From a virus (taxonomy: Duplodnaviria; Heunggongvirae; Uroviricota; Caudoviricetes): a stretch of 8,487 bases of DNA. Position numbers and translations under genes: made by a program. The DNA lies in IMG/VR virus record IMGVR_UViG_2675903650_000007, positions 1-8,487 of that record. One strand, 5' to 3'. The notes under the pieces are model-generated. The model did no database searches. It had not been told where the DNA came from and saw nothing but the letters and a program-made list of their open reading frames with translations. Below, piece by piece: positions 1 to 8,487 of the stretch. Numbering within the stretch: position 1 is the stretch's first letter; the number at the start of each line of letters is the position of its first letter.

Positions 1-8
1 ACGCCATA

Positions 9-32
9 TCACTCTCCTTTGATGCGAATGCC
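9..32. repeat. 24-bp direct repeat, copy A (3' junction of Ea22-like paralog 2)
   Basis: TCACTCTCCTTTGATGCGAATGCC is identical at 9-32 and 852-875. On the minus strand it encodes GIRIKGE, the stop codon and the SD of the next gene. Confidence 0.85.
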
Positions 33-530
33 TGTTGCAATGCTGTTTATGATGCTGTCAGTGCATGGGGTAGAAAGCTGGGCATCTCCAGCAATTTTCA
101 TGACCTCAACATCTGCATATCGAATACCGAGGTGTATCAGACCGGCTATGCCTGACTTAAGTCGAACATTTTCCATAAACAGATCTTTTTCCCGCTGTTT
201 AGCGGCTTCCAACTCCATCGACAATTTTTCCAACTGCTCTTTATGCTTCTTGTATTCCTGATACGCGTGCCAAGACTGACCTTTGCGCACACTATCAGTG
301 ATATCAGCAACCTGCTCCGGTGTTAGCGTGGTCAGTGGCTGTGCTGGAAAAATCATCACCTTCCCGGCATCCCAATCAAAACCCGCCTGAATTGACTGAA
401 CCTCAACTGATGGTGTTGAACCGATGCGACCAGGCGAATGAACAACGATCGTTACATCCATATCGCGACGATGGCTGTGGTTGTTGGACAAAATACGATT
501 CACCAACTCAGAAAATTTGGAAAATTTCAT
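9..530 (-). CDS. Ea22-like family prophage protein, paralog 2 (173 aa from ATG at 528-530; the six-frame ORF extends to 659)
   Basis: Minus-strand ORF. Start chosen at MKFSKF because GAGGGA sits 5 nt upstream and the ATG overlaps the upstream gene's stop (ATGA). The C-terminus ...GIRIKGE* is identical to that of the 249-aa Ea22-like protein at 852..1601, encoded by the same 24-bp DNA. Central coiled-coil-like segment ([32 protein letters not shown]). Family assignment is from memory. Confidence 0.5.
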
Positions 531-850
531 GCTGATCCCTCTTTTTCTCCCCGGATAATTCTGTTGCACACATCCACACACTCGTCGCAGATGAAAACGG
601 CGTCCCCAGCAATTAACTTTTTGACGGCGTACTGGGATTTGTTGCAGAAGCTGCAACAAAGTGTTCGCCTGACTGATAAGGATGGAGCGCCAGATGTCAG
701 CCGCTCCATATCGTTCTTGCGACGCAATATCACACGGCTGAACTCAACCAGTTTCTCCGGGGATATCTCCTCCTCCGTAGCAAGCGCCTCTAATCGTTCG
801 AGTATGTGGAAGGCTTTTTTCTGGGTAATTGCAGAATGCGATGTGGTCAT
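527..850 (-). CDS. Small protein with C-terminal ClpX-type C4 zinc-finger domain (107 aa)
   Basis: Minus-strand ORF. Start at ATG 848-850 with GGAGAG 4 nt upstream, chosen over the in-frame ATG at 892 which has no good SD. The C-terminal segment [35 protein letters not shown] closely resembles the N-terminal zinc-binding domain of ClpX (CSFCGKSQHEVRKLIAG..ICDECVDLCNDII), including all four Cys. Stop overlaps the start of the downstream gene (ATGA). Confidence 0.7.
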
Positions 851-851
851 C

Positions 852-875
852 TCACTCTCCTTTGATGCGAATGCC
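852..875. repeat. 24-bp direct repeat, copy B (3' junction of Ea22-like paralog 1)
   Basis: Same 24-mer as 9-32; flanking sequence diverges on both sides. Confidence 0.85.
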
Positions 876-1601
876 AGCGGCGCGGGAATCATTCCATCGC
901 TTTACTTCTTCACGAATTACGTCAATGCATTCTTTCGAATCCATTAGGTAATCTTCATCAAAAAGACGTTCCTGTTCGTTTTCTATCGCAACAATGATTG
1001 CTTCAACTAACTTTTGTGCCTGAGAACCACTTTCTAACTCTGCAATGCGCTTCTCTGCGGCTTCCAGATTCTCGCGCATATCGTCAACGTACTCGACCAG
1101 AGATCCGCCAGCAGGAATTTCGCATTCCTCGACCAGTTGGAAGTAGATATCAGCTGCGGCCCGTGTGTTGCTATGCCTAGCGTCGCCCATCTCACCTTCA
1201 CGAAGAGCATCGCGTTCGGCGGTAAGATTGGCTATTTTGCTGTCTTTGCCTTCCAGCTCAACGCGCAGCCTCCCAACCGTAAGCGCAATATCCTCGTTCT
1301 CCTGATCGCGGCTTTTGATGTATTGCAGGTTTCTTTCCCGTTCATCCAGCAGTGCCAGCACGGTAGCCGGGTTAGCCTCTGCTATGAATTCAGCGTTTGC
1401 ATAAGCCTGAGCATCTGTTTCAACCAGGCAGTTAACGTGACATTCTGCAATTACGCCACCGGGTTCTCCTTTCCATTTTTGACAAACAAAAACTCCTGTT
1501 AAATTGCCGTGTTGGTTAACAGATGTATGCCCTACGATGTAGCTTCCTTTAGTTGCTTTCTCTGCCTTTTCACGCAGTGCCTGATAGTTAATCTCGCTCA
1601 C
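852..1601 (-). CDS. ead/Ea22-like family prophage protein, paralog 1 (249 aa)
   Basis: Minus-strand ORF with GTG start at 1599-1601 overlapping the upstream stop (GTGA) and GGAGG 7 nt upstream. N-terminus [19 protein letters not shown].., acidic coiled-coil middle, C-terminal ..GIRIKGE* shared with 9..530. Family assignment is from memory of E. coli prophage annotations. Confidence 0.6.
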
Positions 1602-1822
1602 TCTTCATCCTCCAAGTCGGCAACGGCGTCCATCACATCAGAACCGCGAATAACCTCAAAAGCACGGCAGGCCATTTGAAATACCAGTTGCTCTTGCGGG
1701 TGAGGAGACTCCCAATATTTGAAGCCTGGGCGATGCGTGTACCCCATCATTGAATAAAAATCACCAGCAAGCTTAATCGCGGCATCGACAAGCTCTCTGT
1801 TAGTCATTCTTTTTCCGCTCAC
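1598..1822 (-). CDS. Hypothetical small prophage protein (74 aa, acidic C-terminus)
   Basis: Minus-strand ORF. GTG start at 1820-1822 overlaps the upstream stop (GTGA) and has GGAGG 6 nt upstream. An alternative ATG start at 1805-1807 would give 69 aa. No recognised domain. Confidence 0.5.
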   Translation of the reverse strand: MSGKRMTNRELVDAAIKLAGDFYSMMGYTHRPGFKYWESPHPQEQLVFQMACRAFEVIRGSDVMDAVADLEDEE

Positions 1823-2250
1823 TGGTTGCCTCCTTTGCGAAGCTGGGCAGCAAAGTCAACTAACCACTCAGTCATTTCAACCTTCCCTACCAGGTCTGAA
1901 CCAGGGTACATACAGCAATCACTCTGCGCCGCTTTGAAATCCTTATACTCATATTCTTGGGCCACCAGATTTTTTGCAGCTTCTATAGCAGCATCCACCC
2001 CCTGCGCCCGGACTTCAGCCAGGAAAGCATCAGTGGCTGGCATATTTCCTGTTGCCTTCATTGCCTCCAAAATAACCAGAACGCCATCTCGCCCAATCTC
2101 CTCGCAGATAACCTCGGTGCTGTCGCCAACAACATCGCAAAATGCCTGAACTGCTTTACGAGCCAGCGCATCTTCCGCCCTGTGAAACGCCTCGCGGTTG
2201 AAATTTTCATATCCCGTCATTGGACCGGCAATATAAACTCTCACCCTCAC
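1819..2250 (-). CDS. Hypothetical protein with nucleoside 2-deoxyribosyltransferase-like (DUF4406-type) N-terminal motif (143 aa)
   Basis: Minus-strand ORF. GTG start at 2248-2250 overlaps the upstream stop (GTGA) and has AGGAGG 7 nt upstream. The N-terminus VYIAGPMTGYENFNREAF matches the K-IYIAGPMTG motif of DUF4406 / deoxyribosyltransferase-like phage proteins, but the remainder is longer and did not match my recollection of that family. Confidence 0.55.
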   Translation of the reverse strand: MRVRVYIAGPMTGYENFNREAFHRAEDALARKAVQAFCDVVGDSTEVICEEIGRDGVLVILEAMKATGNMPATDAFLAEVRAQGVDAAIEAAKNLVAQEYEYKDFKAAQSDCCMYPGSDLVGKVEMTEWLVDFAAQLRKGGNQ

Positions 2251-2639
2251 TCCATCACCTCCTGAAAGTTTCCCCGATAGAACGCCAGCACACGCTGCAT
2301 AACTTCGCTCCTCCTGCTCTCACGACAAATTATGTTCTGCCGTCTGTTGTAACGACGTATTTCTCCGTCAGGTAACTTTCGAATCAGTGTCGGGTCAGCA
2401 GCCTTCTCCGGTGTCTTACGCCATACGCGATACGCCTGCTCTGATGGAAATACCCCGCAACCAGAGAGCCAGACATCACCACTGGCCGCAAGCGCACCAG
2501 ATAAACGACGAATAGCGGTCTTACTGACACCCGTTTTATCTGCCAGTTGTCGAAAAGTTTCTCGTCCGCTCAGGCGCACGAATTCCACAATGCGCGCCTT
2601 CACTTCTTCCCGCTCTTCTGGTGTAAATACTTTTGCCAT
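2247..2639 (-). CDS. Hypothetical prophage protein (130 aa)
   Basis: Minus-strand ORF. ATG at 2637-2639 with GGAGG 5 nt upstream; the ORF track's TTG at 2654 is rejected. Basic, possibly nucleic-acid-binding (..KTGVSKTAIRRL.. resembles an HTH). Stop overlaps the next start. Confidence 0.55.
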   Translation of the reverse strand: MAKVFTPEEREEVKARIVEFVRLSGRETFRQLADKTGVSKTAIRRLSGALAASGDVWLSGCGVFPSEQAYRVWRKTPEKAADPTLIRKLPDGEIRRYNRRQNIICRESRRSEVMQRVLAFYRGNFQEVME

Positions 2640-2654
2640 AAGCGCCTCCGGCAA

Positions 2655-3380
2655 TCACTTTTCCGACACAATACGACCGGATGAATCGACAATCTGTCGA
2701 ACAATATCCCGGTGCTTGTTCAGCTCCCGCAGCGCGGCGCAGACTCGCTCCCACTTCTGAACCTGACCTTTTGCCCGGCGCAGCTCGCGGTTAGCCACAT
2801 GCAGCGATGGTAAAATCAGACCATCCGGATGTTTTCTGGTGAACGACGGCTGTGACTGCACTGTGACCGCCACACTTTCCGTTTTTATTTCTTCCTGTGT
2901 TTCTGCTTCCCGGACAGGTAACGCAACACCTGCTGGCTGAGGAAAGGCTTTACCATCGGTTTCCGCTACGGATGCAGCTTCCGGCTCTGCCGGTAAATCA
3001 GCGCCCGGTATGCAGTAACGAAATTTACCGCCCTGATTCACGCGAATCAGACGCCCTTTGCTGATTGCCATGGCCAGCGATGAATTCGCCCGGCGGGAGG
3101 TAATCCCGAACATCAGTGCCAGCTCATCCGCCGTTTGTGGGCCATGTTGTTCAATCGCCTCAGTCAACATTTGCGCTGTCACTTTCGGTACCGGTGACAC
3201 CGGTTCACTTTCACCAGCCTGAATCAGCCACCACATCGAACCCTTGTTATCCGCTTCACCGCGGCGCTTCAGTTTCCACAGTTCGTTGACCGCATCTTCA
3301 CGGCTGATTCCAAGGCGGGCCGCCACTACCTGTGAAGAGGCTCTTTTCAGTGCTTTCAGTGCGTCAAATACGGTTTCCAT
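2655..3380 (-). CDS. Hypothetical prophage protein with two tandem winged-helix-like segments (241 aa)
   Basis: Minus-strand ORF. ATG at 3378-3380 with GGAGG upstream. Two similar segments (..[25 protein letters not shown].. and ..[28 protein letters not shown]..) suggest an internal duplication of a small DNA-binding module. Sits immediately after the helicase-loader gene, where lambdoid phages carry accessory nin/ren-type genes. Confidence 0.6.
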
Positions 3381-3409
3381 TAAAATTTCCTCCGGATAAA
3401 AATTACTTC

Positions 3410-4150
3410 TCAGTTCCTGTGCTGGCTGACGTTCGGACGCCAGCTCTCCCAGTTAAACGTCACCCAGCGACCACCGTTCATGGACATGCGGTCCATTACC
3501 CGCTCGCCGAGAAGTGTATTCATCGCTGCATGATTAAGATTTGTCAGCATCCCCACACTGAGTAACGATGCCGTTCTACGGTCAACAATCTGATTCAGCG
3601 TGACCTGCTCATTACGCGTATCCCGTTGCATGCCAATTTCATCCAGTACCAGCAGGTCAACGCCACACAATCCCTGCAAAAATTTTTCGCCCGAGTTTTT
3701 GTTGTCGTAGCTGCCATGTAACGCTAGCATCACATCCGCCACTGTTATCACAATCACACTGCGACCTTTCGCCAGAAGGTGGTTGCCAATAGCCGCCGCC
3801 AGGTGGTTTTTTCCTGTGCCAGGCCTGCCACTGAAAACAAAATTCGTACAGCCGCCTTCCAGCTCTGCCGCAATGGATTTCGCCTGACTCAGGGCATGGC
3901 GCTGACCATCGTTCTGCACCCGGTAGTTACCGAACGTACACTTCCGGTGAAGCGGCTGGATACCGGAACGGTTAATGATTTTTTCAACCCGCGTCTGATG
4001 ATTCAGACGATTAACCTCCTCGCTTCGCTTACGCCCTTCAGCAAGCTGCCATTCCCGCCACTCCGCCACCGTACGGTACGGAGGGATTGCATCCTGCGGC
4101 ACAAATCTGCTGACTCTTGCCAGAACACCACCTGACGTAATGTTTTTCAT
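3410..4150 (-). CDS. DnaC-like replicative helicase loader (AAA+ ATPase, IstB/DnaC family; 246 aa)
   Basis: Walker [16 protein letters not shown] and Walker B LLVLDEIG motifs in the arrangement typical of DnaC and the Rac YdaV-type loader. ATG at 4148-4150, 6 nt after the stop of the initiator gene. Confidence 0.9.
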
Positions 4151-4156
4151 GATGCG

Positions 4157-5110
4157 CTACCCCCTGAACCCCGGCGGAATTTCGGTATCCGGTTCAGAAA
4201 TATGATTCACGCAACGCTGCGCGGGCGAACGCCCCAGGCGAATTACCAGTTCATCCCATTTTTCCCGGAGTTTTGCCGGACTCATGATGTTTTTTACCCA
4301 GAACGAATCCCGTTGAACACGCCCAAACATTTCACAAATCTGTCGGTGACTACGTCCATCCAGCATACGCATCATGCGCACATCATTCGCCCAGGTCGTC
4401 CAGTTAGGCTCTCTGGGGCGTGATACCTCCCCATCATCACTGGCGGCCTGTTCATACAACGCAACAACCCGTCCCCAGATCCACTGTGCACACGTCAAAT
4501 CCTCCCGGGTTCCCCACTGTCGCTTCGGTACATTCCAAGTATGCGCATCCGGGTGTTTCTCCAGAAATCGCTCAACTGGTGATGATTGTTTTTCGTCCGG
4601 CAGTGAAACGTCTGGACAAGAAGATCTTTTATCTGACGGATCAGGTTTTAATACTGACGGATCGGGGTCAATCATCGCCCCCCTAATCCGCAGTTTTTTA
4701 TCAACAGTTGATCCATCAACATTTGACGGGCCAACCGTTGAGGGGGCAATATTTGACGGGTCATTTTTTGCCGGGCTAATTTTTCTTTTTGGTTTATATG
4801 CCTCACGCGCCGCCGCTGCAGCTGCTTCAAGTTTTTCCACATTAAGCCGATAGATATTGCTTACGTTACGCCCACCGACCTTACGCTCTTCCTTCGTCAG
4901 CCAGCCCTCTTTCGCCAGTTCTGCAATAGCAGATTTAACGGTGGATTCACTTCTTGCACCGATCTGACGCCGGATAGTTTCAATGGCAGGCCATGACACG
5001 CCCTCGTCATTGCTGTAGTCTGCAAGACGGGCCATAACTGCCACCCTGGATAAGATCATGCCGGTGAAGGCGCACCCTTCCCAGACAAGACCATGAAGCT
5101 TGCTGCTCAT
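4157..5110 (-). CDS. Replication initiator / replisome organizer, O-like (317 aa from ATG 5108-5110)
   Basis: Minus-strand ORF directly upstream of the DnaC-like gene. N-terminal winged-helix-like domain, Ala-rich and Pro/Asp/Ser-rich linker, C-terminal domain. The linker DNA contains an iteron cluster and AT-rich tract, as lambda ori sits inside O. The ORF track's GTG at 5125 is rejected in favour of the ATG with GGGGG 4 nt upstream. Confidence 0.8.
   Translation of the reverse strand: MSSKLHGLVWEGCAFTGMILSRVAVMARLADYSNDEGVSWPAIETIRRQIGARSESTVKSAIAELAKEGWLTKEERKVGGRNVSNIYRLNVEKLEAAAAAAREAYKPKRKISPAKNDPSNIAPSTVGPSNVDGSTVDKKLRIRGAMIDPDPSVLKPDPSDKRSSCPDVSLPDEKQSSPVERFLEKHPDAHTWNVPKRQWGTREDLTCAQWIWGRVVALYEQAASDDGEVSRPREPNWTTWANDVRMMRMLDGRSHRQICEMFGRVQRDSFWVKNIMSPAKLREKWDELVIRLGRSPAQRCVNHISEPDTEIPPGFRG
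4634..4800. repeat. Putative origin of replication: iteron cluster plus AT-rich tract inside the O-like gene
   Basis: Direct repeats TGACGGATC (4634-4642, 4655-4663), TGACGGGCC (4724-4732), TGACGGGTC (4754-4762), a degenerate TGAGGGGG (4739-4746) and an inverted near-copy GATCCATCA (4710-4718). Immediately followed by AT-rich tcattttttgccgggctaatttttctttttggtttatat (4763-4800). Confidence 0.6.
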
Positions 5111-5132
5111 AAAACCCCCGAACACCGTGCTT

Positions 5133-5558
5133 TTAGTGCATCACCACAGCATTCCCTGCCGGGCCGCCGCGATTTATCTGGTCATACAAAACGACCGCTG
5201 ACGCAACAAAATCGTCGACATCCTTCACCAGCCGATCCCGCCGTTCGACAATCTCCCGGTAATACTCAGAACTGTGACTGCGCATACGGGCCACCAGCAA
5301 AGGCGGCATCGCCTTTTCGATCGCCGGTAACAGCGCCTGAATTTTTTCAACAGCATCAGGCGTATCCTTCTCCACCCAGCGGAAAATTTTCTGGGTATTA
5401 CGGGCCAGGGCTTCCGGATGGCTGTCGTCGTACAGTTCCGGGAACGTCATCCCAAGTTCGAAATAAGTCCGGGCTATTTCAGCTGCAGGCACTTTCTCAC
5501 CATCAGGATATGCCCAGGCATTCATCGCCATGCGGATGTGTTCATGTTTGATTTTCAT
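5133..5558 (-). CDS. YdaT-like protein (Rac-prophage YdaT family) in the cII position (141 aa)
   Basis: Minus-strand ORF immediately downstream of the cro-like gene, start overlapping its stop (ATGA at 5555-5558). The N-terminus MKIKHEHI.. matches my recollection of E. coli Rac YdaT. It does not resemble lambda CII. Confidence 0.65.
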   Translation of the reverse strand: MKIKHEHIRMAMNAWAYPDGEKVPAAEIARTYFELGMTFPELYDDSHPEALARNTQKIFRWVEKDTPDAVEKIQALLPAIEKAMPPLLVARMRSHSSEYYREIVERRDRLVKDVDDFVASAVVLYDQINRGGPAGNAVVMH

Positions 5559-5818
5559 GAATCAACTCCCAGCGCGGGTTGTGTGTTAGCCTGATAGTCA
5601 ACAGGTATGCCATCGGTTGGGTTGGGGTAAGTACTGCTATCAATCTCGTGCGGGGTCACTACCCACCCTGTTGCTTCACACCAGCGTAAAACTTTCCCCC
5701 CCGTAAGTTTCGCCCGTCCAGTAATAACATGGCTTACCATCCCTTGGGTTACCCCAACAATTTCAGCAAAATCTTTCTGGGTTATACGGGAATGATGCAA
5801 ATATTCTCCAAGATTCAT
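5555..5818 (-). CDS. Cro-like / YdaS-family HTH regulator (87 aa)
   Basis: First gene of the minus-strand operon, divergent from the repressor gene. HTH-like segment ITQKDFAEIVGVTQGMVSHVITGRAKLT. RBS GAGGTG 4 nt before the ATG at 5816-5818. Confidence 0.7.
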   Translation of the reverse strand: MNLGEYLHHSRITQKDFAEIVGVTQGMVSHVITGRAKLTGGKVLRWCEATGWVVTPHEIDSSTYPNPTDGIPVDYQANTQPALGVDS

Positions 5819-5847
5819 TGTTCACCTCATGTTATGTGACCATGAAT

Positions 5848-5890
5848 ATTAATAGCATTGTTATTTTTAAAAGTAAATAGCACTGCTATT
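5848..5890. promoter_or_regulatory. OR-like operator pair and divergent promoter region (PR-like on minus strand)
   Basis: Two 15-bp palindromes 25 bp apart: AATAGCATTGTTATT (5851-5865) and AATAGCACTGCTATT (5876-5890). On the minus strand a near-consensus -10 TATTAAT (plus coordinates 5848-5854) and -35 TTTACT (5872-5877) with a 17-bp spacer overlap the two operators and point into the cro-like gene. A plus-strand repressor promoter is expected between 5885 and 5920 but cannot be placed confidently. Confidence 0.65.
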
Positions 5891-5925
5891 TCAAAGAGAT
5901 TAATAATCTTATTAGAATTGAAGGT

Positions 5926-6426
5926 ATGAAAAGAAAACCCCTGTCAGAGATCGACCTGCAAGCCGCCCAGAGACTGAAAGAAATCTGGACGACGAAAAAA
6001 ACTCAACTTGGGTTAACCCAAGAGCGTGCGGCAGAAATTCTGGGTTTTTCGACACAAGGGGCAGTAAGCCATTATCTAAATGGTCAGACACCTTTAAATC
6101 TAGAGGCTGTTATCAAGTTCGCTGGGTTGCTACAAGTTCCGCCTGAGTCAATTAGACCAGATATGGCAGACTTGTTACGAATTGTAAGGATGTACCCCCA
6201 AGAACTGCAGCAGGATAATGTTGTCGCTTTACCCGCAGAGATGGAACAATCGGAAAACGAACTTCCGTTTAATATAGAACCTATAGAGCGAGATTTGATC
6301 CAGACGTTCAGGGCTTTCCCAAAAGAAGACAAAGAGAAAATGCTTAAGGAAATGAAGGAGAAAAAAGAATCAATTGAAGAAACCGTTGCGCGGTGGCTAG
6401 AGGCGCAAAAAGGTCTTCGCGCCTAA
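5926..6426 (+). CDS. Prophage repressor, XRE-family HTH, no S24 peptidase domain (DicA/RacR/PaaR2-like; 166 aa)
   Basis: Divergent from the cro-like gene across an operator-containing intergenic region. HTH motif LTQERAAEILGFSTQGAVSHYLNGQ. The C-terminus is Lys/Glu-rich helical and lacks a LexA/CI-type autocleavage domain. Followed after 17 nt by the antitoxin gene, so the three genes are probably co-transcribed. Confidence 0.8.
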   Translation: MKRKPLSEIDLQAAQRLKEIWTTKKTQLGLTQERAAEILGFSTQGAVSHYLNGQTPLNLEAVIKFAGLLQVPPESIRPDMADLLRIVRMYPQELQQDNVVALPAEMEQSENELPFNIEPIERDLIQTFRAFPKEDKEKMLKEMKEKKESIEETVARWLEAQKGLRA

Positions 6427-6443
6427 TCTGAGGAGGTTAGAAC

Positions 6444-6635
6444 ATGAGTACAGTCCTTTCCCCGATAATTTCAGAATTTGAAACAATCGAACAAGAAAAC
6501 AGCTATAACGAATGGTTACGCACCAAAGTGGCAGCAAGCCTCGCAGACCCCCGTCCTGCAATTCCGCATGACGAAGTAATGGCTGAAATGGAAAACCTTA
6601 TTGCGCAAATAGCTTCGACGAACAGGAGTGAGTAA
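6444..6635 (+). CDS. Small antitoxin (PaaA2-like) of a ParE-type toxin-antitoxin pair (63 aa)
   Basis: Strong RBS GAGGAGG 6 nt upstream of the ATG. Small acidic protein (..SEFETIEQENSYNEWLR..) whose stop overlaps the toxin start (TAATG at 6633-6637). The sequence resembles my recollection of PaaA2 from E. coli O157 prophages. Confidence 0.75.
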   Translation: MSTVLSPIISEFETIEQENSYNEWLRTKVAASLADPRPAIPHDEVMAEMENLIAQIASTNRSE

Positions 6636-6925
6636 TGCTGCCCATTTTATGGCTACCTTCTGCGCGTGATGATTTGCGTCAGATCGTAGCCTATATTGCC
6701 AAGGAAAACCCTCCCGCTGCACGTAGACTAAAAATACGCATTGAAACATCAGTTTTGTCACTTACTGAACACCCTTACCTGTATCCACCAAGCGAAAGAG
6801 CTCTAGGCCTTCGTGAGATAGTGACCCATCCTAACTACATAATACTTTACCGAGTAACAGCATCTAACATCGAGATCGTAAATGTAGTTCACTCACGAAG
6901 GCAGTATCCAAACAAAAGCTGTTAA
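6635..6925 (+). CDS. parE: ParE/RelE-superfamily toxin (ParE-like; 96 aa)
   Basis: Size and motif pattern typical of ParE toxins (LP-LW..A..DL..I..YIA.-NP.AA..L...I......L...P.-G......L-LRE.V-...YI--YRV....IEI-.V-HSRR). Translationally coupled to the preceding antitoxin gene. Confidence 0.8.
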   Translation: MLPILWLPSARDDLRQIVAYIAKENPPAARRLKIRIETSVLSLTEHPYLYPPSERALGLREIVTHPNYIILYRVTASNIEIVNVVHSRRQYPNKSC

Positions 6926-6939
6926 TCATTCCTACCAAC

Positions 6940-6964
6940 AACCACCTTCGGGTGGTTTTTTTTT
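6940..6964 (+). terminator. Rho-independent terminator of the repressor-antitoxin-toxin operon
   Basis: Perfect hairpin AACCACC-TTCG-GGTGGTT (stem 6940-6946 / 6951-6957, GNRA-like loop) followed by a T-run through 6964, 15 nt after the toxin stop codon. Confidence 0.8.
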
Positions 6965-6980
6965 CTTACCTCCAAAAAAC

Positions 6981-7022
6981 AATAGCATTACTATTTACAG
7001 AATAAAATAGCAGTGCTATTGT
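6981..7022 (+). promoter_or_regulatory. OL-like operator pair with PL-like promoter
   Basis: Second pair of the same 15-bp palindrome, again 25 bp apart: AATAGCATTACTATT (6981-6995) and AATAGCAGTGCTATT (7006-7020). Candidate -35 TTTACA (6994-6999) and -10 TATTGT (7017-7022) with a 17-bp spacer overlap both operators and point rightward. Confidence 0.6.
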
Positions 7023-7199
7023 TTATTCATCACCCACCCTCCCCACAGAACGCAGGGCAATACTTCGAGTTACCAGGCAGTGGTCAGGGGGTAAGTAGCC
7101 AGCCCGAGGCGTAAGAACATGACGGCAGGGTTCAACTTTAATAACTATGCAGCAGGTTTTTGTTCCGCTACCCCGGCGTTAAGGGGAAATGAGGTCAGC

Positions 7200-7352
7200 A
7201 TGGATACTATCGATCTTGGCAACAGCGAATCTCTGGTATGTGGCGTGTTCCCCAACCAGGACGGTACGTTTACCGCGATGACGTATACCAGAAGCAAAAC
7301 GTTTAAAACTGAAGCTGGCGCGCGTCGCTGGTTAACCAGAAACACTGACTGA
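7200..7352 (+). CDS. YdaF/YdfA-like small prophage protein (50 aa)
   Basis: RBS GAGG 5 nt before the ATG at 7200. MDTIDLGNSESLVCGVFPNQDGTFTAMTYTRSKTFKTEAGARRWLTRNTD resembles the ~51-aa first gene of the Rac/Qin PL-type operons as I recall it. The ORF track's longer version from ATG 7119 has no SD. Confidence 0.6.
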   Translation: MDTIDLGNSESLVCGVFPNQDGTFTAMTYTRSKTFKTEAGARRWLTRNTD

Positions 7353-7363
7353 TGAGGTTGACG

Positions 7364-7702
7364 ATGGAATTTAAAGATTTACCTCCTTCAATCCAGGAGA
7401 TTGCAGCACACACACTTCGTCATCGTCTGAACGAACTTGAATTGGAATCGGTAACAAAAAAAGACACTGATAATATGGCTCGTAATGTGCGCGATGCGTT
7501 TACTGGGCTGTTTTCAGATACAGCTTTAAATATCCATGGCACAGAGGATACAGCAAAACAATTTGCAGAAAAAGAAGTGGAAGATCCCAGTTCAAAGAGC
7601 CAGAAACAGCCAAACAACCATGAAATTAACGAACTGCTTCTGGCAACAGGCTTCATAAATATTAACGAATATGAACGCCGTAAAAAAATGTTATCTGATT
7701 AA
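7364..7702 (+). CDS. Hypothetical acidic prophage protein (112 aa)
   Basis: ATG at 7364 with GAGG 5 nt upstream; an in-frame ATG at 7352 overlaps the preceding stop and would add 4 aa. No recognised domain. The 3' end overlaps the convergent gene 7691..7885 by 12 bp. Confidence 0.55.
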   Translation: MEFKDLPPSIQEIAAHTLRHRLNELELESVTKKDTDNMARNVRDAFTGLFSDTALNIHGTEDTAKQFAEKEVEDPSSKSQKQPNNHEINELLLATGFININEYERRKKMLSD

Positions 7703-7885
7703 TCCATCAAGATATCTTTTTAGCATCAGCGTTTCTACGTTATTAAAACCATCAGATTTTAACATAGCTTCGATTCGCTGATTTAAATTGCCAACTAACT
7801 GTTGATACTGAGTAGATGGAAGCATGTGTACCAGCTCCTTGAGAACACAATAACATGCACCAAGTTTTAACTCCTGCTCTGACAT
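7691..7885 (-). CDS. Hypothetical small protein, convergent to the PL-like operon (64 aa)
   Basis: Minus-strand ORF with start ATG at 7883-7885 and GGAGGA 4 nt upstream. MSEQELKLGACYCVLKELVHML.. has no recognised family. The longer ORF-track version (88 aa, to 7957) lacks an SD. Confidence 0.45.
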   Translation of the reverse strand: MSEQELKLGACYCVLKELVHMLPSTQYQQLVGNLNQRIEAMLKSDGFNNVETLMLKRYLDGLIR

Positions 7886-8227
7886 TTTATCCTCCATTGA
7901 GGTTACTGGTTGAGAATGGAGACCTCTCGTGACAGCGTGTGGTCGTGCGCCGGACACGGATAAGAATCCGGCACTGACAGTTTACTGAAAGGATATTTCC
8001 CTGAAAAGTCAGACCATAACGCGAAAGCGCACGGCGAGGTAGCTGGTTCATAGATAGCCTGTCGTTAAATTTTCGTCGACCGTGCGCTTCCGGTTGTGGC
8101 AATCCGCGAAATGGCGCGGCGGTAAGTATGGCTGGGGTTTCCTCCATTGCTCCAGAAAATGCACCGGGTTGTCAGGTTGACCATACGCTTAAGTGACAAC
8201 CCCGCTACAACGCCCTCTGTTATCAAT

Positions 8228-8285
8228 TTTCTGGTGACATTTGGCGGTATCAGTTTTACTCCGTGACTGCTCTGCCGCCCTTTTT
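8228..8285 (+). ncRNA. dicF: DicF-like small regulatory RNA
   Basis: tttctggtgacatttggcggtatcagttttactccgtgactgctctgccgcccttttt matches the ~53-nt DicF sRNA of the E. coli Qin prophage almost base for base, from memory with about one difference, including the GC-rich 3' stem and U-tract. Confidence 0.8.
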
Positions 8286-8290
8286 AAAGT

Positions 8291-8442
8291 GAATTTTGTG
8301 ATGCGGTGAATGCGGCTCAGCGCACGCGGAACAGTTAAAACAAGCGGTCTTTTACGGGCGTAACGGGAATGCTCTGTATCCGGCGTTAATTGTTAACTGG
8401 TTAACGTCACCTGGAGGCACCAGGCACCGCATCACAAAATTC
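8291..8442. repeat. 18-bp perfect inverted repeat enclosing 116 nt, immediately 3' of DicF
   Basis: GAATTTTGTGATGCGGTG (8291-8308) is the exact reverse complement of CACCGCATCACAAAATTC (8425-8442). On a DicF read-through transcript this would form an 18-bp dsRNA stem. Confidence 0.7.
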
Positions 8443-8487
8443 ATTGTTGAGGACGCGATTGTCACGAACGGTGCAATAGTGATCCAC

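Follow-up and report, generated by a model that had tools for sequence, protein, structure and literature searches.

A small antisense gene behind a conserved leader in a dicBF-type prophage operon, read as the payload of a probable moron-like cassette

The morons of lambdoid phages, as described by Hendrix and colleagues, are autonomous promoter–gene–terminator units that sit between the genes of an operon. Anti-CRISPR and anti-defence loci hold diverse small open reading frames (ORFs) that share a conserved regulatory neighbourhood, and the pR/pL pair of coliphage 186 is a case of transcriptional interference between convergent promoters. The dicBF operon is a much-studied set of prophage genes acting on host division, metabolism and phage resistance. 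Here we analyse a stretch of 8,487 nucleotides (nt) of viral DNA (IMG/VR record IMGVR_UViG_2675903650_000007, positions 1 to 8,487; Caudoviricetes), hereafter the window, which is a Qin/dicBF-type lambdoid prophage of Escherichia coli. Our subject is a pair of convergent genes within its operon, a plus-strand gene of 112 amino acids (aa) and a minus-strand gene of 64 aa, whose 3' ends overlap. The original prediction, made from the sequence alone, had offered two readings of this pair: a regulatory antisense arrangement or a small moron.

On balance, we favour with some confidence the reading that a portable, moron-like antisense cassette, consisting of a weak promoter, a structured leader of ~87 nt and one small ORF, is lodged in the dicBF-type operon and has the 64-aa gene as its payload. 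We infer that the lysogen probably expresses the cassette, and that operon transcription works against it after derepression. The reading is drawn from sequence data, namely the gene's anatomy, purifying selection, mosaic joints, conservation of the leader, swapping of payloads and the antisense orientation. In the lysogen, with the PL-like promoter of the operon repressed, the cassette would be transcribed from its own promoter, and a hairpin over one half of the Shine-Dalgarno (SD) sequence would perhaps tune its translation. Once the operon is derepressed, transcription bound for the DicF small RNA (sRNA) would cross the whole cassette antisense, and would oppose its expression through collision and through pairing of sense and antisense RNA. 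That transcription of each gene runs antisense into the other, as had been pointed out, is borne out by the convergent geometry, which makes mutual interference unavoidable.

The 64-aa minus-strand gene

The minus-strand ORF spans 7691-7957, with an internal ATG at 7885 that yields the 64-aa product (7691-7885; WP_001295058.1, a hypothetical protein in RefSeq). The strong SD noticed earlier, GGAGGA, is located at 7895-7890 on the minus strand, 4 nt ahead of this ATG. The exact length of 64 aa is kept in E. coli, in Salmonella (86% aa identity) and in Citrobacter (72%), and across these three the ORF has an omega of 0.22-0.31 in its own frame (Nei-Gojobori). The protein matches phrog_4987, a family of unknown function, over its full length (residues 1-64 of 64, E = 3.1e-49), and two distant relatives, P0052 and P0053, match it as well. 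AlphaFold2, run on an eight-sequence alignment of the family, predicts helices at residues 3-20, 24-43 and 49-63 with a mean pLDDT (predicted local distance difference test) of 89. Homology and structure prediction had both been suggested earlier as checks on this protein.

Because length and frame are kept in three genera, omega stays within 0.22-0.31 and the phrog_4987 match is full-length, we conclude that the 64-aa ORF is a real gene and, judging from these comparisons, under purifying selection; its product is, by its predicted fold, a small three-helix protein of unknown function. The opposite view, that the ORF is a spurious reading frame, could point to the lack of a functional annotation, to the lack of a strong promoter and to a tblastn search of the 64-aa protein against deposited phage genomes, which found nothing. 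The preserved length and frame, the phrog_4987 match that reaches distant family members (E = 3e-49), the confidently predicted fold, the strong SD and a mosaic joint lying exactly at the ATG together leave a negligible chance for this view, and we reject it on conservation and omega.

An exhaustive profile search found six relatives only, none of them IraP, and these include P0052 (45% identity) and P0053 (36%). A protein-pattern scan of representative genomes found no relative, and a profile search of PDB sequences gave nothing meaningful. Neither PADLOC (defence systems) nor Pfam (relevant toxin, antitoxin or defence families) gave a match for either of the two convergent ORFs or for the other payloads described below, which gives no link to a type II toxin-antitoxin or known defence system.

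We also compared the protein with IraP (Pfam PF10796, NCBIfam NF007598, PDB 8gkv), which stabilises RpoS as an anti-adaptor of RssB. IraP is the best Pfam match of the window protein, though its 14.4 bits (E = 0.062) fall short of the cutoff of 23.2, and is the top Pfam match of five family members, that of the window and four others, all in one register that aligns residues ~7-63 with profile positions 25-82; P0052 alone passes the Pfam cutoff (24.5 bits). NCBIfam gave no match for the window protein, and the Citrobacter homologue, which NCBI names IraP, scores 26.8 bits against a cutoff of 78. In that Citrobacter freundii locus (L011 220-640), a gene caller had stretched the 64-aa ORF to 103 aa through the leader, and it is this product that carries the name. 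Alignment of the 64-aa family with an IraP alignment by hhalign gave a probability of 31% (E = 5e-4), and BLASTP of the 64-aa protein against K-12 IraP found nothing. All IraP alignments begin at profile position 20-32: the 64-aa family is without the first ~18-30 IraP residues, including the coiled-coil region (residues 1-35) and L9, and both the N-terminal coiled coil and L9 have been implicated in IraP activity (PMC4428439). The genomic settings are also distinct, as K-12 iraP adjoins phoA and the 64-aa gene lies within prophage early operons at every locus examined. Membership of the IraP family was therefore rejected on three counts: a score below the curated cutoff, the absent N-terminal region and a different genomic context. 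The 64-aa protein is possibly related to IraP, through a weak and unconfirmed resemblance to its C-terminal two thirds, and this likeness supplies a concrete hypothesis, stabilisation of RpoS.

The slot, its payloads and the leader

In blastn comparisons with representatives of each arrangement, the right joint of the window's cassette falls at 7878-7884, at the minus-strand ATG, whichever other cassette type it is compared with; the left joint is found at different points of the plus-strand gene (7386, 7502, 7515 or 7571). Against the commonest cassette type, which has a 69-aa payload, the joints delimit an AT-rich segment at 7572-7879, and GC content is 31-37% over 7575-7875 versus 46-55% on both flanks. 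The segment 7520-7960 occurs at an identity of at least 99% in 152 of 5426 complete E. coli genomes, strains such as ATCC 25922 and O104:H4 2011C-3493 having the identical cassette, and the sequence to the right of ~7880 is common to thousands of genomes. K-12 Qin and strain 357900 are without the AT-rich segment, and other prophages have different ORFs at the same joint; in K-12 Qin the variable slot holds the plus-strand genes ydfB and ydfC and no minus-strand gene. Two hallmarks of a moron are thereby present, an extra gene between neighbours and a deviating base composition. The idea of a small moron stands in large part, given an AT-rich, cassette-specific segment that is absent or replaced in many related prophages, K-12 Qin among them.

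An exact search of IMG/VR for the last 19 nt of the leader (CTCAATGGAGGATAAAATG) found at least 119 loci, and among the matches listed at least six unrelated ORFs stand behind the leader's ATG. Counted among those matches, they are payloads of 69 aa (MPNK..., phrog_4274, ~60 loci), 64 aa (MSEQ..., the window gene, ~31 loci), 61 aa (MSDK..., ~15 loci), 80 aa (MPTKLCPAC..., zinc-ribbon-like, 4 loci), 75 aa (MINEEQ..., 1-3 loci) and 63 aa (MSATTTKCPKC..., zinc-ribbon-like, 1 locus). Frameshifted payload stumps occur too, and leader variants and payloads have been reshuffled relative to one another; the antisense orientation of the payload to the operon is the same in every locus examined. From these comparisons, what stays constant is the leader, and one ORF can take the place of another behind its ATG. 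The slot, with ydfA and the MEFK-family gene on one side and the untranslated DicF-precursor block on the other, is a recombination hot spot of dicBF-type lambdoid prophages. In Citrobacter freundii (L011 220-640), the 64-aa payload and a homologue of the 69-aa one form a same-strand tandem that has no intact partner gene in between.

The portable leader covers 87 nt on the minus strand (7886-7972), and would form the 5' untranslated region (5'UTR) of the 64-aa gene. RNAalifold places three hairpins in it: hairpin 1 (7971-7950, GCCGGA/TCCGGC), hairpin 2 (about 7944-7921) and hairpin 3, which pairs UCCAUU (7920-7915) with AAUGGA (7898-7893) and covers half of the SD. The inverted repeats of hairpin 2 differ by leader class (ACACG/CGTGT, ACATG/CATGT, CTCCAT/ATGGAG, CTCCAC/GTGGAG and CCCAAC/GTTGGG), a variation that fits a conserved stem. 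At a permissive threshold, Rfam gave no family over 7650-8240.

A 108-nt stretch of the leader is matched in 1289 of the 5426 complete E. coli genomes, at 2005 places and in up to four copies per genome. The leader also travels beyond this operon position and beyond this species. In a Salmonella locus (L008), two partner-plus-payload modules follow one another, every payload preceded by a leader copy of ~125 nt, and the second of these copies, copy B, lies away from the pre-DicF block; two further loci, L016 and L124, share with the window only ~90-110 nt (7883-7971 and 7879-7989). Ahead of the P0052 and P0053 genes, the leader reads as a GCCGGA...TCCGGCGCAC hairpin, another inverted repeat and a CTCCAT box, then GGAGG and the ATG, which follows the first hairpin at about 83-87 nt. 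An exact search with hairpin 1, in one genome per species, found the leader with further payloads in Edwardsiella ictaluri, E. anguillarum and Pluralibacter gergoviae, and a degenerate leader in Escherichia albertii.

Some of these loci have features of their own. In two Edwardsiella loci (L137, L140) and in L138, the leader precedes a proline-rich peptide of 30-32 aa (MRINQFGGTERPRPDGQV...PKPKK), a candidate payload of unknown function. L138 (CACSKA010000005.1) is labelled Chryseobacterium sp. (Bacteroidota), and has an enterobacterial leader and a proline-rich payload of 32 aa that closely resembles those of Edwardsiella; contamination or a wrong label may account for this contig. The Salmonella locus L008 contains, at 1614-3497, three tandem C4 antisense RNA repeats and an isrK-like RNA by Phage_ASH genes; DicF is absent from it, and its place is taken by another terminator-like hairpin.

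The original prediction had seen no obvious promoter for the 64-aa gene. This agrees with a consensus scan, which called no minus-strand promoter in 7886-8230, and needs qualifying in the light of the leader comparison, which gives a weak candidate on the minus strand: a -35 element TTTTCA (8007-8002), a 17-nt spacer and a -10 element TAAACT (7984-7979), found also in other E. coli dicF-linked leader copies. Across non-homologous upstream contexts, a -10-like hexamer lies 5-9 nt ahead of hairpin 1 and a -35-like hexamer 17-18 nt further up, as in TTGAGA-17-GATAAT (L016 and L021), T[TG]GTCC-18-TATAAC (both Salmonella copies) and TTGTCT-17-TAGTAT (the Edwardsiella-type leader). Because the -10-like hexamer keeps its place in contexts that are not homologous, the comparison suggests that the cassette has its own promoter and that transcription would start at or just before hairpin 1 (~7972-7975), making the shared 87 nt a 5'UTR.

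A rival reading is a cis-antisense device, in which minus-strand transcription gates read-through to DicF and DicB, by interference or by RNase III acting on the duplex, with the peptide secondary. Operon transcripts must cross the cassette before DicF, the convergent promoters would be ~950 bp apart, no strong terminator lies between the genes, the orientation is invariant in every locus examined, and RNase III does act on dicBF operon RNA in K-12 (bioRxiv 10.1101/2023.04.14.536235). However, the ORF appears to be under purifying selection with its exact length kept across three genera, the payloads are unrelated proteins and not arbitrary sequence, the leader occurs without an adjacent DicF (Salmonella copy B, L016), and K-12 and many other prophages produce DicF without an antisense gene. 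Given a constrained coding sequence and a leader that is also found away from DicF, we reject a pure antisense device and consider it improbable that gating is what the locus is for. The regulatory antisense arrangement put forward originally is thus unlikely as the main purpose; antisense regulation would be a side effect of the cassette rather than its purpose.

The convergent overlap and the plus-strand partner

The plus-strand ORF begins at 7352 or 7364 and ends at 7702 (116 or 112 aa in the ORF list). Its 112-aa form (7364-7702) belongs to a family that we call MEFKDLP, with a conserved N-terminal part of ~70 aa and a C-terminal tail that is particular to this cassette. In the homology check suggested for this protein, it matches phrog_2151/1363, and Pfam and NCBIfam gave no match. 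RefSeq retains only 7364-7514 (151 nt), as a pseudogene called 'incomplete, missing C-terminus' by the Prokaryotic Genome Annotation Pipeline (PGAP; PID00_RS28420, O3K_RS27635). The ORF could accordingly be a decaying, truncated copy of a ~212-aa gene that reads into the cassette, leaving the minus-strand gene as the only functional one, and two further facts agree with this: it aligns to positions 1-101 only of the 212-position phrog_2151 profile, and its stop position shifts among close relatives. Yet it aligns with its Salmonella homologue at 74% nucleotide identity with zero indels, and this one diverged comparison, on which the case for purifying selection rests, gives an omega of 0.41 for the whole ORF and of 0.29 for its C-terminal half, the supposed read-through, versus 0.7-1.0 in the other two frames. 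In addition, the MEFKDLP family has many different yet intact tails. Owing to the indel-free alignment and an omega of 0.29-0.41, the 112-aa ORF is probably a gene under purifying selection and our analysis suggests that the RefSeq pseudogene call is wrong; we judge decay to be quite unlikely.

The 12-bp overlap of the two genes at 7691-7702 agrees with the ORF coordinates, and the codon boundaries of the two strands are in register. The plus-strand stop TAA (7700-7702) is the complement of the minus-strand Leu62 codon TTA, and the minus-strand stop TAA is the complement of a plus-strand Leu codon TTA (7691-7693). The length of the overlap depends on the cassette type, at 0, 12, 29, 33, 44 or 75 bp: it is 0 bp for the 69-aa payload (partner of 212/216 aa), 29 bp for the 61-aa payload (52/56 aa) and 44 bp for the 80-aa payload (186 aa), and for the 64-aa payload it is 12 bp with a partner of 112/116 aa (24 loci among the matches listed) or 33 bp with a partner of 119/123 aa (4 loci among them). 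The step from 12 to 33 bp consists of a change of the plus-strand stop from TAA to CAA, which extends the plus-strand ORF to 119 aa and, on the minus strand, turns TTA into TTG, synonymous at Leu62. In Citrobacter, most of the partner is deleted, and the 64-aa gene faces ydfA over 41 bp. Since the length varies by cassette, the step from 12 to 33 bp is synonymous and Citrobacter has no intact partner, the overlap looks incidental, a matter of tight packing at a mosaic joint and no device in itself. The shared bases look constrained by the minus-strand frame.

The statement that no terminator lies between the two genes holds for strong terminators, none of which was called there by the consensus scan. 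It has to be relaxed for a weaker motif below the criteria of that scan, in which A7, a weak hairpin (7693-7713) and T5 span the overlap at 7682-7721 and concern both strands. On the minus strand the motif is a hairpin followed by U7 and folds at -11.9 kcal/mol (z = -2.96), as against z = -0.96 on the plus strand; its T-run is interrupted in Salmonella. The motif might be a poor bidirectional terminator.

Several observations weigh against the cassette reading, and those that concern the partner are the ones on which a second explanation is built. Each payload type has its own partner tail, and there are four lineages in which a member of the 64-aa family and a convergent partner share their ends (by 12/33 bp, 4 bp and 11 bp), the overlaps of 4 and 11 bp being those of P0052 and P0053. 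Both facts would suit a two-gene convergent module, in which the 64-aa protein and the C-terminal tail of its partner are functionally coupled, for instance by the small protein binding or regulating the early protein with the tail, and the 3' overlap is kept through joint inheritance and perhaps joint regulation. The two complete partner-plus-payload modules in tandem in Salmonella speak for it as well, and so do the tails themselves. The partners of P0052 and P0053 have unrelated N-terminal parts (one is a 74-aa protein, the other a 186-aa protein with a helix-turn-helix (HTH)-like segment), and the last ~25 residues of the partner tails share LxLxxGxIxxxE[YF], placed 18-22 nt from the payload stop; the resembling tails compared, from the window and the distant members, are LLLATGFININEY, LLLDAGLISMAEF and LRLDIGMMSMAEY. 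In shuffle tests, the distant tails resemble those of the window and Salmonella at p = 0.007-0.05 and each other at p < 2e-4, and codon positions 1 and 2 of the tail are more conserved than position 3, with the C-terminal omega of 0.29 already given. However, linkage between two fixed recombination anchors would give co-variation anyway, a six-frame search with a profile of the two distant tails does not make the tail of the window stand out (E = 2.4, rank 5), Citrobacter has its two payloads in tandem without intact partners, and the plus-strand stop moves freely, to give 112, 113 or 119 aa. Because linkage between the anchors would yield much of the tail pattern, we place the two-gene module second and regard it as doubtful.

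The remaining points concern the promoter and the leader. The window's promoter candidate has only 8/12 consensus positions and was missed by the scan. Hairpins 1 and 3 are invariant and RNAalifold finds almost no covariation in the leader; with these two hairpins invariant, covariation neither supports nor refutes their stems. Single-sequence folding energies of the leader, on either strand, are no better than those of shuffles (z = -0.8). The leader of K-12 Qin has lost its SD and ATG and has kept hairpins 1 and 2 without a payload (K-12 locus L006 2543-2660, set against 7886-8010 of the window), and leader DNA also lies inside the plus-strand DicF precursor. Its conservation is therefore not assignable to one strand, and part of it may serve the plus-strand RNA. 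In K-12, RNase III makes a 190-nt DicF precursor, and the hairpin remnants lie upstream of it (bioRxiv 10.1101/2023.04.14.536235).

The operon and comparison with described systems

Over positions 1100-8459, the window differs by one base from strain DETEC-S792 (NZ_CP116067). Its plus strand holds a cI/DicA-like HTH repressor gene (5926-6426), followed by a candidate PL-like promoter, equivalent to dicBp, at 6994-7022 (TTTACA-17-TATTGT with TG, from the consensus scan), which lies upstream of ydfA at a position corresponding to the K-12 dicA-ydfA gap. The ydfA-like gene (7200-7352; DUF1391, Pfam PF07151, E = 6.6e-27) is an annotated coding sequence in RefSeq in a 100% identical genome. To the right of the convergent pair come a conserved untranslated block of ~340 nt (7886-8228), recognised by alignment and from the K-12 annotation, and the DicF sRNA (8229-8280; Rfam RF00039, 77 bits against a cutoff of 48, E = 3.8e-16). 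The order of repressor, ydfA, untranslated block, DicF and dicB is common to the window and K-12 Qin. K-12 obtains its DicF by processing of the operon transcript, with no internal promoter detected on the plus strand (bioRxiv 10.1101/2023.04.14.536235), so that the description of a PL-like operon leading to DicF is sound for the window, and with it the earlier claim that the 64-aa gene lies across the route from the PL-like promoter to DicF.

Two features of the window stand apart from the convergent pair. Between the repressor gene and the PL-like promoter, a plus-strand PaaA2-ParE toxin-antitoxin pair (6444-6925), a module of its own, encodes a PaaA2-like antitoxin of 63 aa and a ParE toxin of 96 aa and is followed by a good terminator-like hairpin (6940-6957), the whole taking up 6444-6957; the pair is absent from an O104:H4 relative. 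At 8460, two bases ahead of the dicB start codon, the window leaves its near-identical relative, and its last 28 nt (8460-8487) are the terminal sequence of an IS100 insertion element (IS21 family). In the window's genome, dicB is thus severed from its SD sequence and from the operon promoter.

Parts of this picture are familiar: the 64-aa gene has an entry in PHROGs and an annotation as a hypothetical gene, and there is nothing unusual in convergent overlaps. The combination of a conserved leader with small ORFs that replace one another, antisense within the dicBF operon, seems not to have been described. In the papers that we consulted no antisense small-gene slot is described, the only mention being of variable genes upstream of dicF. 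By the leader, about a quarter of complete E. coli genomes (1289/5426) carry such a slot. If its genes are expressed as proposed here, they would constitute a family of unrelated, unstudied small proteins made specifically in lysogens, payload and DicF/DicB expression would be mechanically opposed, and the leader would be a sequence handle by which to catalogue such proteins across Enterobacterales. A bolder reading goes further. The leader would be an undescribed regulatory platform of enterobacterial prophages for the lysogen-specific expression of exchangeable small effectors, antisense to the DicF/DicB operon, the phrog_4987 payload would be a truncated IraP-like protein paired with the partner tail, possibly affecting RssB/RpoS or the stability of the partner, and the overlap would mark a true two-gene module. 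We think this unlikely; if it were true, new small proteins that manipulate the host could be sought by way of the leader.

Set beside the described systems, the proposed cassette shares something with each. IraP and the 64-aa protein are both small and all-helical, the latter by prediction; IraP is chromosomal, encoded upstream of phoA, whereas the 64-aa gene resides in a prophage. In the dicBF operon of K-12 Qin (ydfA-ydfB-ydfC-dicF-dicB), the slot is filled by the plus-strand genes ydfB and ydfC, in contrast to the minus-strand gene found here. As in coliphage 186, promoters of the lysogenic and the lytic state would face each other, and the stronger could silence the weaker; unlike pR and pL, the candidate promoters are ~950 bp apart, with two coding regions between them. 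With anti-CRISPR and anti-defence loci the cassette has in common a constant regulatory element that marks the slot of many unrelated small proteins and could lead to further ones, but it comes without an associated regulator gene, and PADLOC found nothing in it. The likeness to morons is the most detailed. An extra small gene separates neighbours that, in related prophages, either adjoin or have something else between them, and its base composition is unlike that of the flanks. A promoter of its own is probable, as is its expression in the lysogen at a time when the operon is repressed. It departs from morons in being antisense to the operon and in having no strong terminator, and also in what is portable: the conserved part is the leader, behind which unrelated ORFs are exchanged precisely at the start codon.

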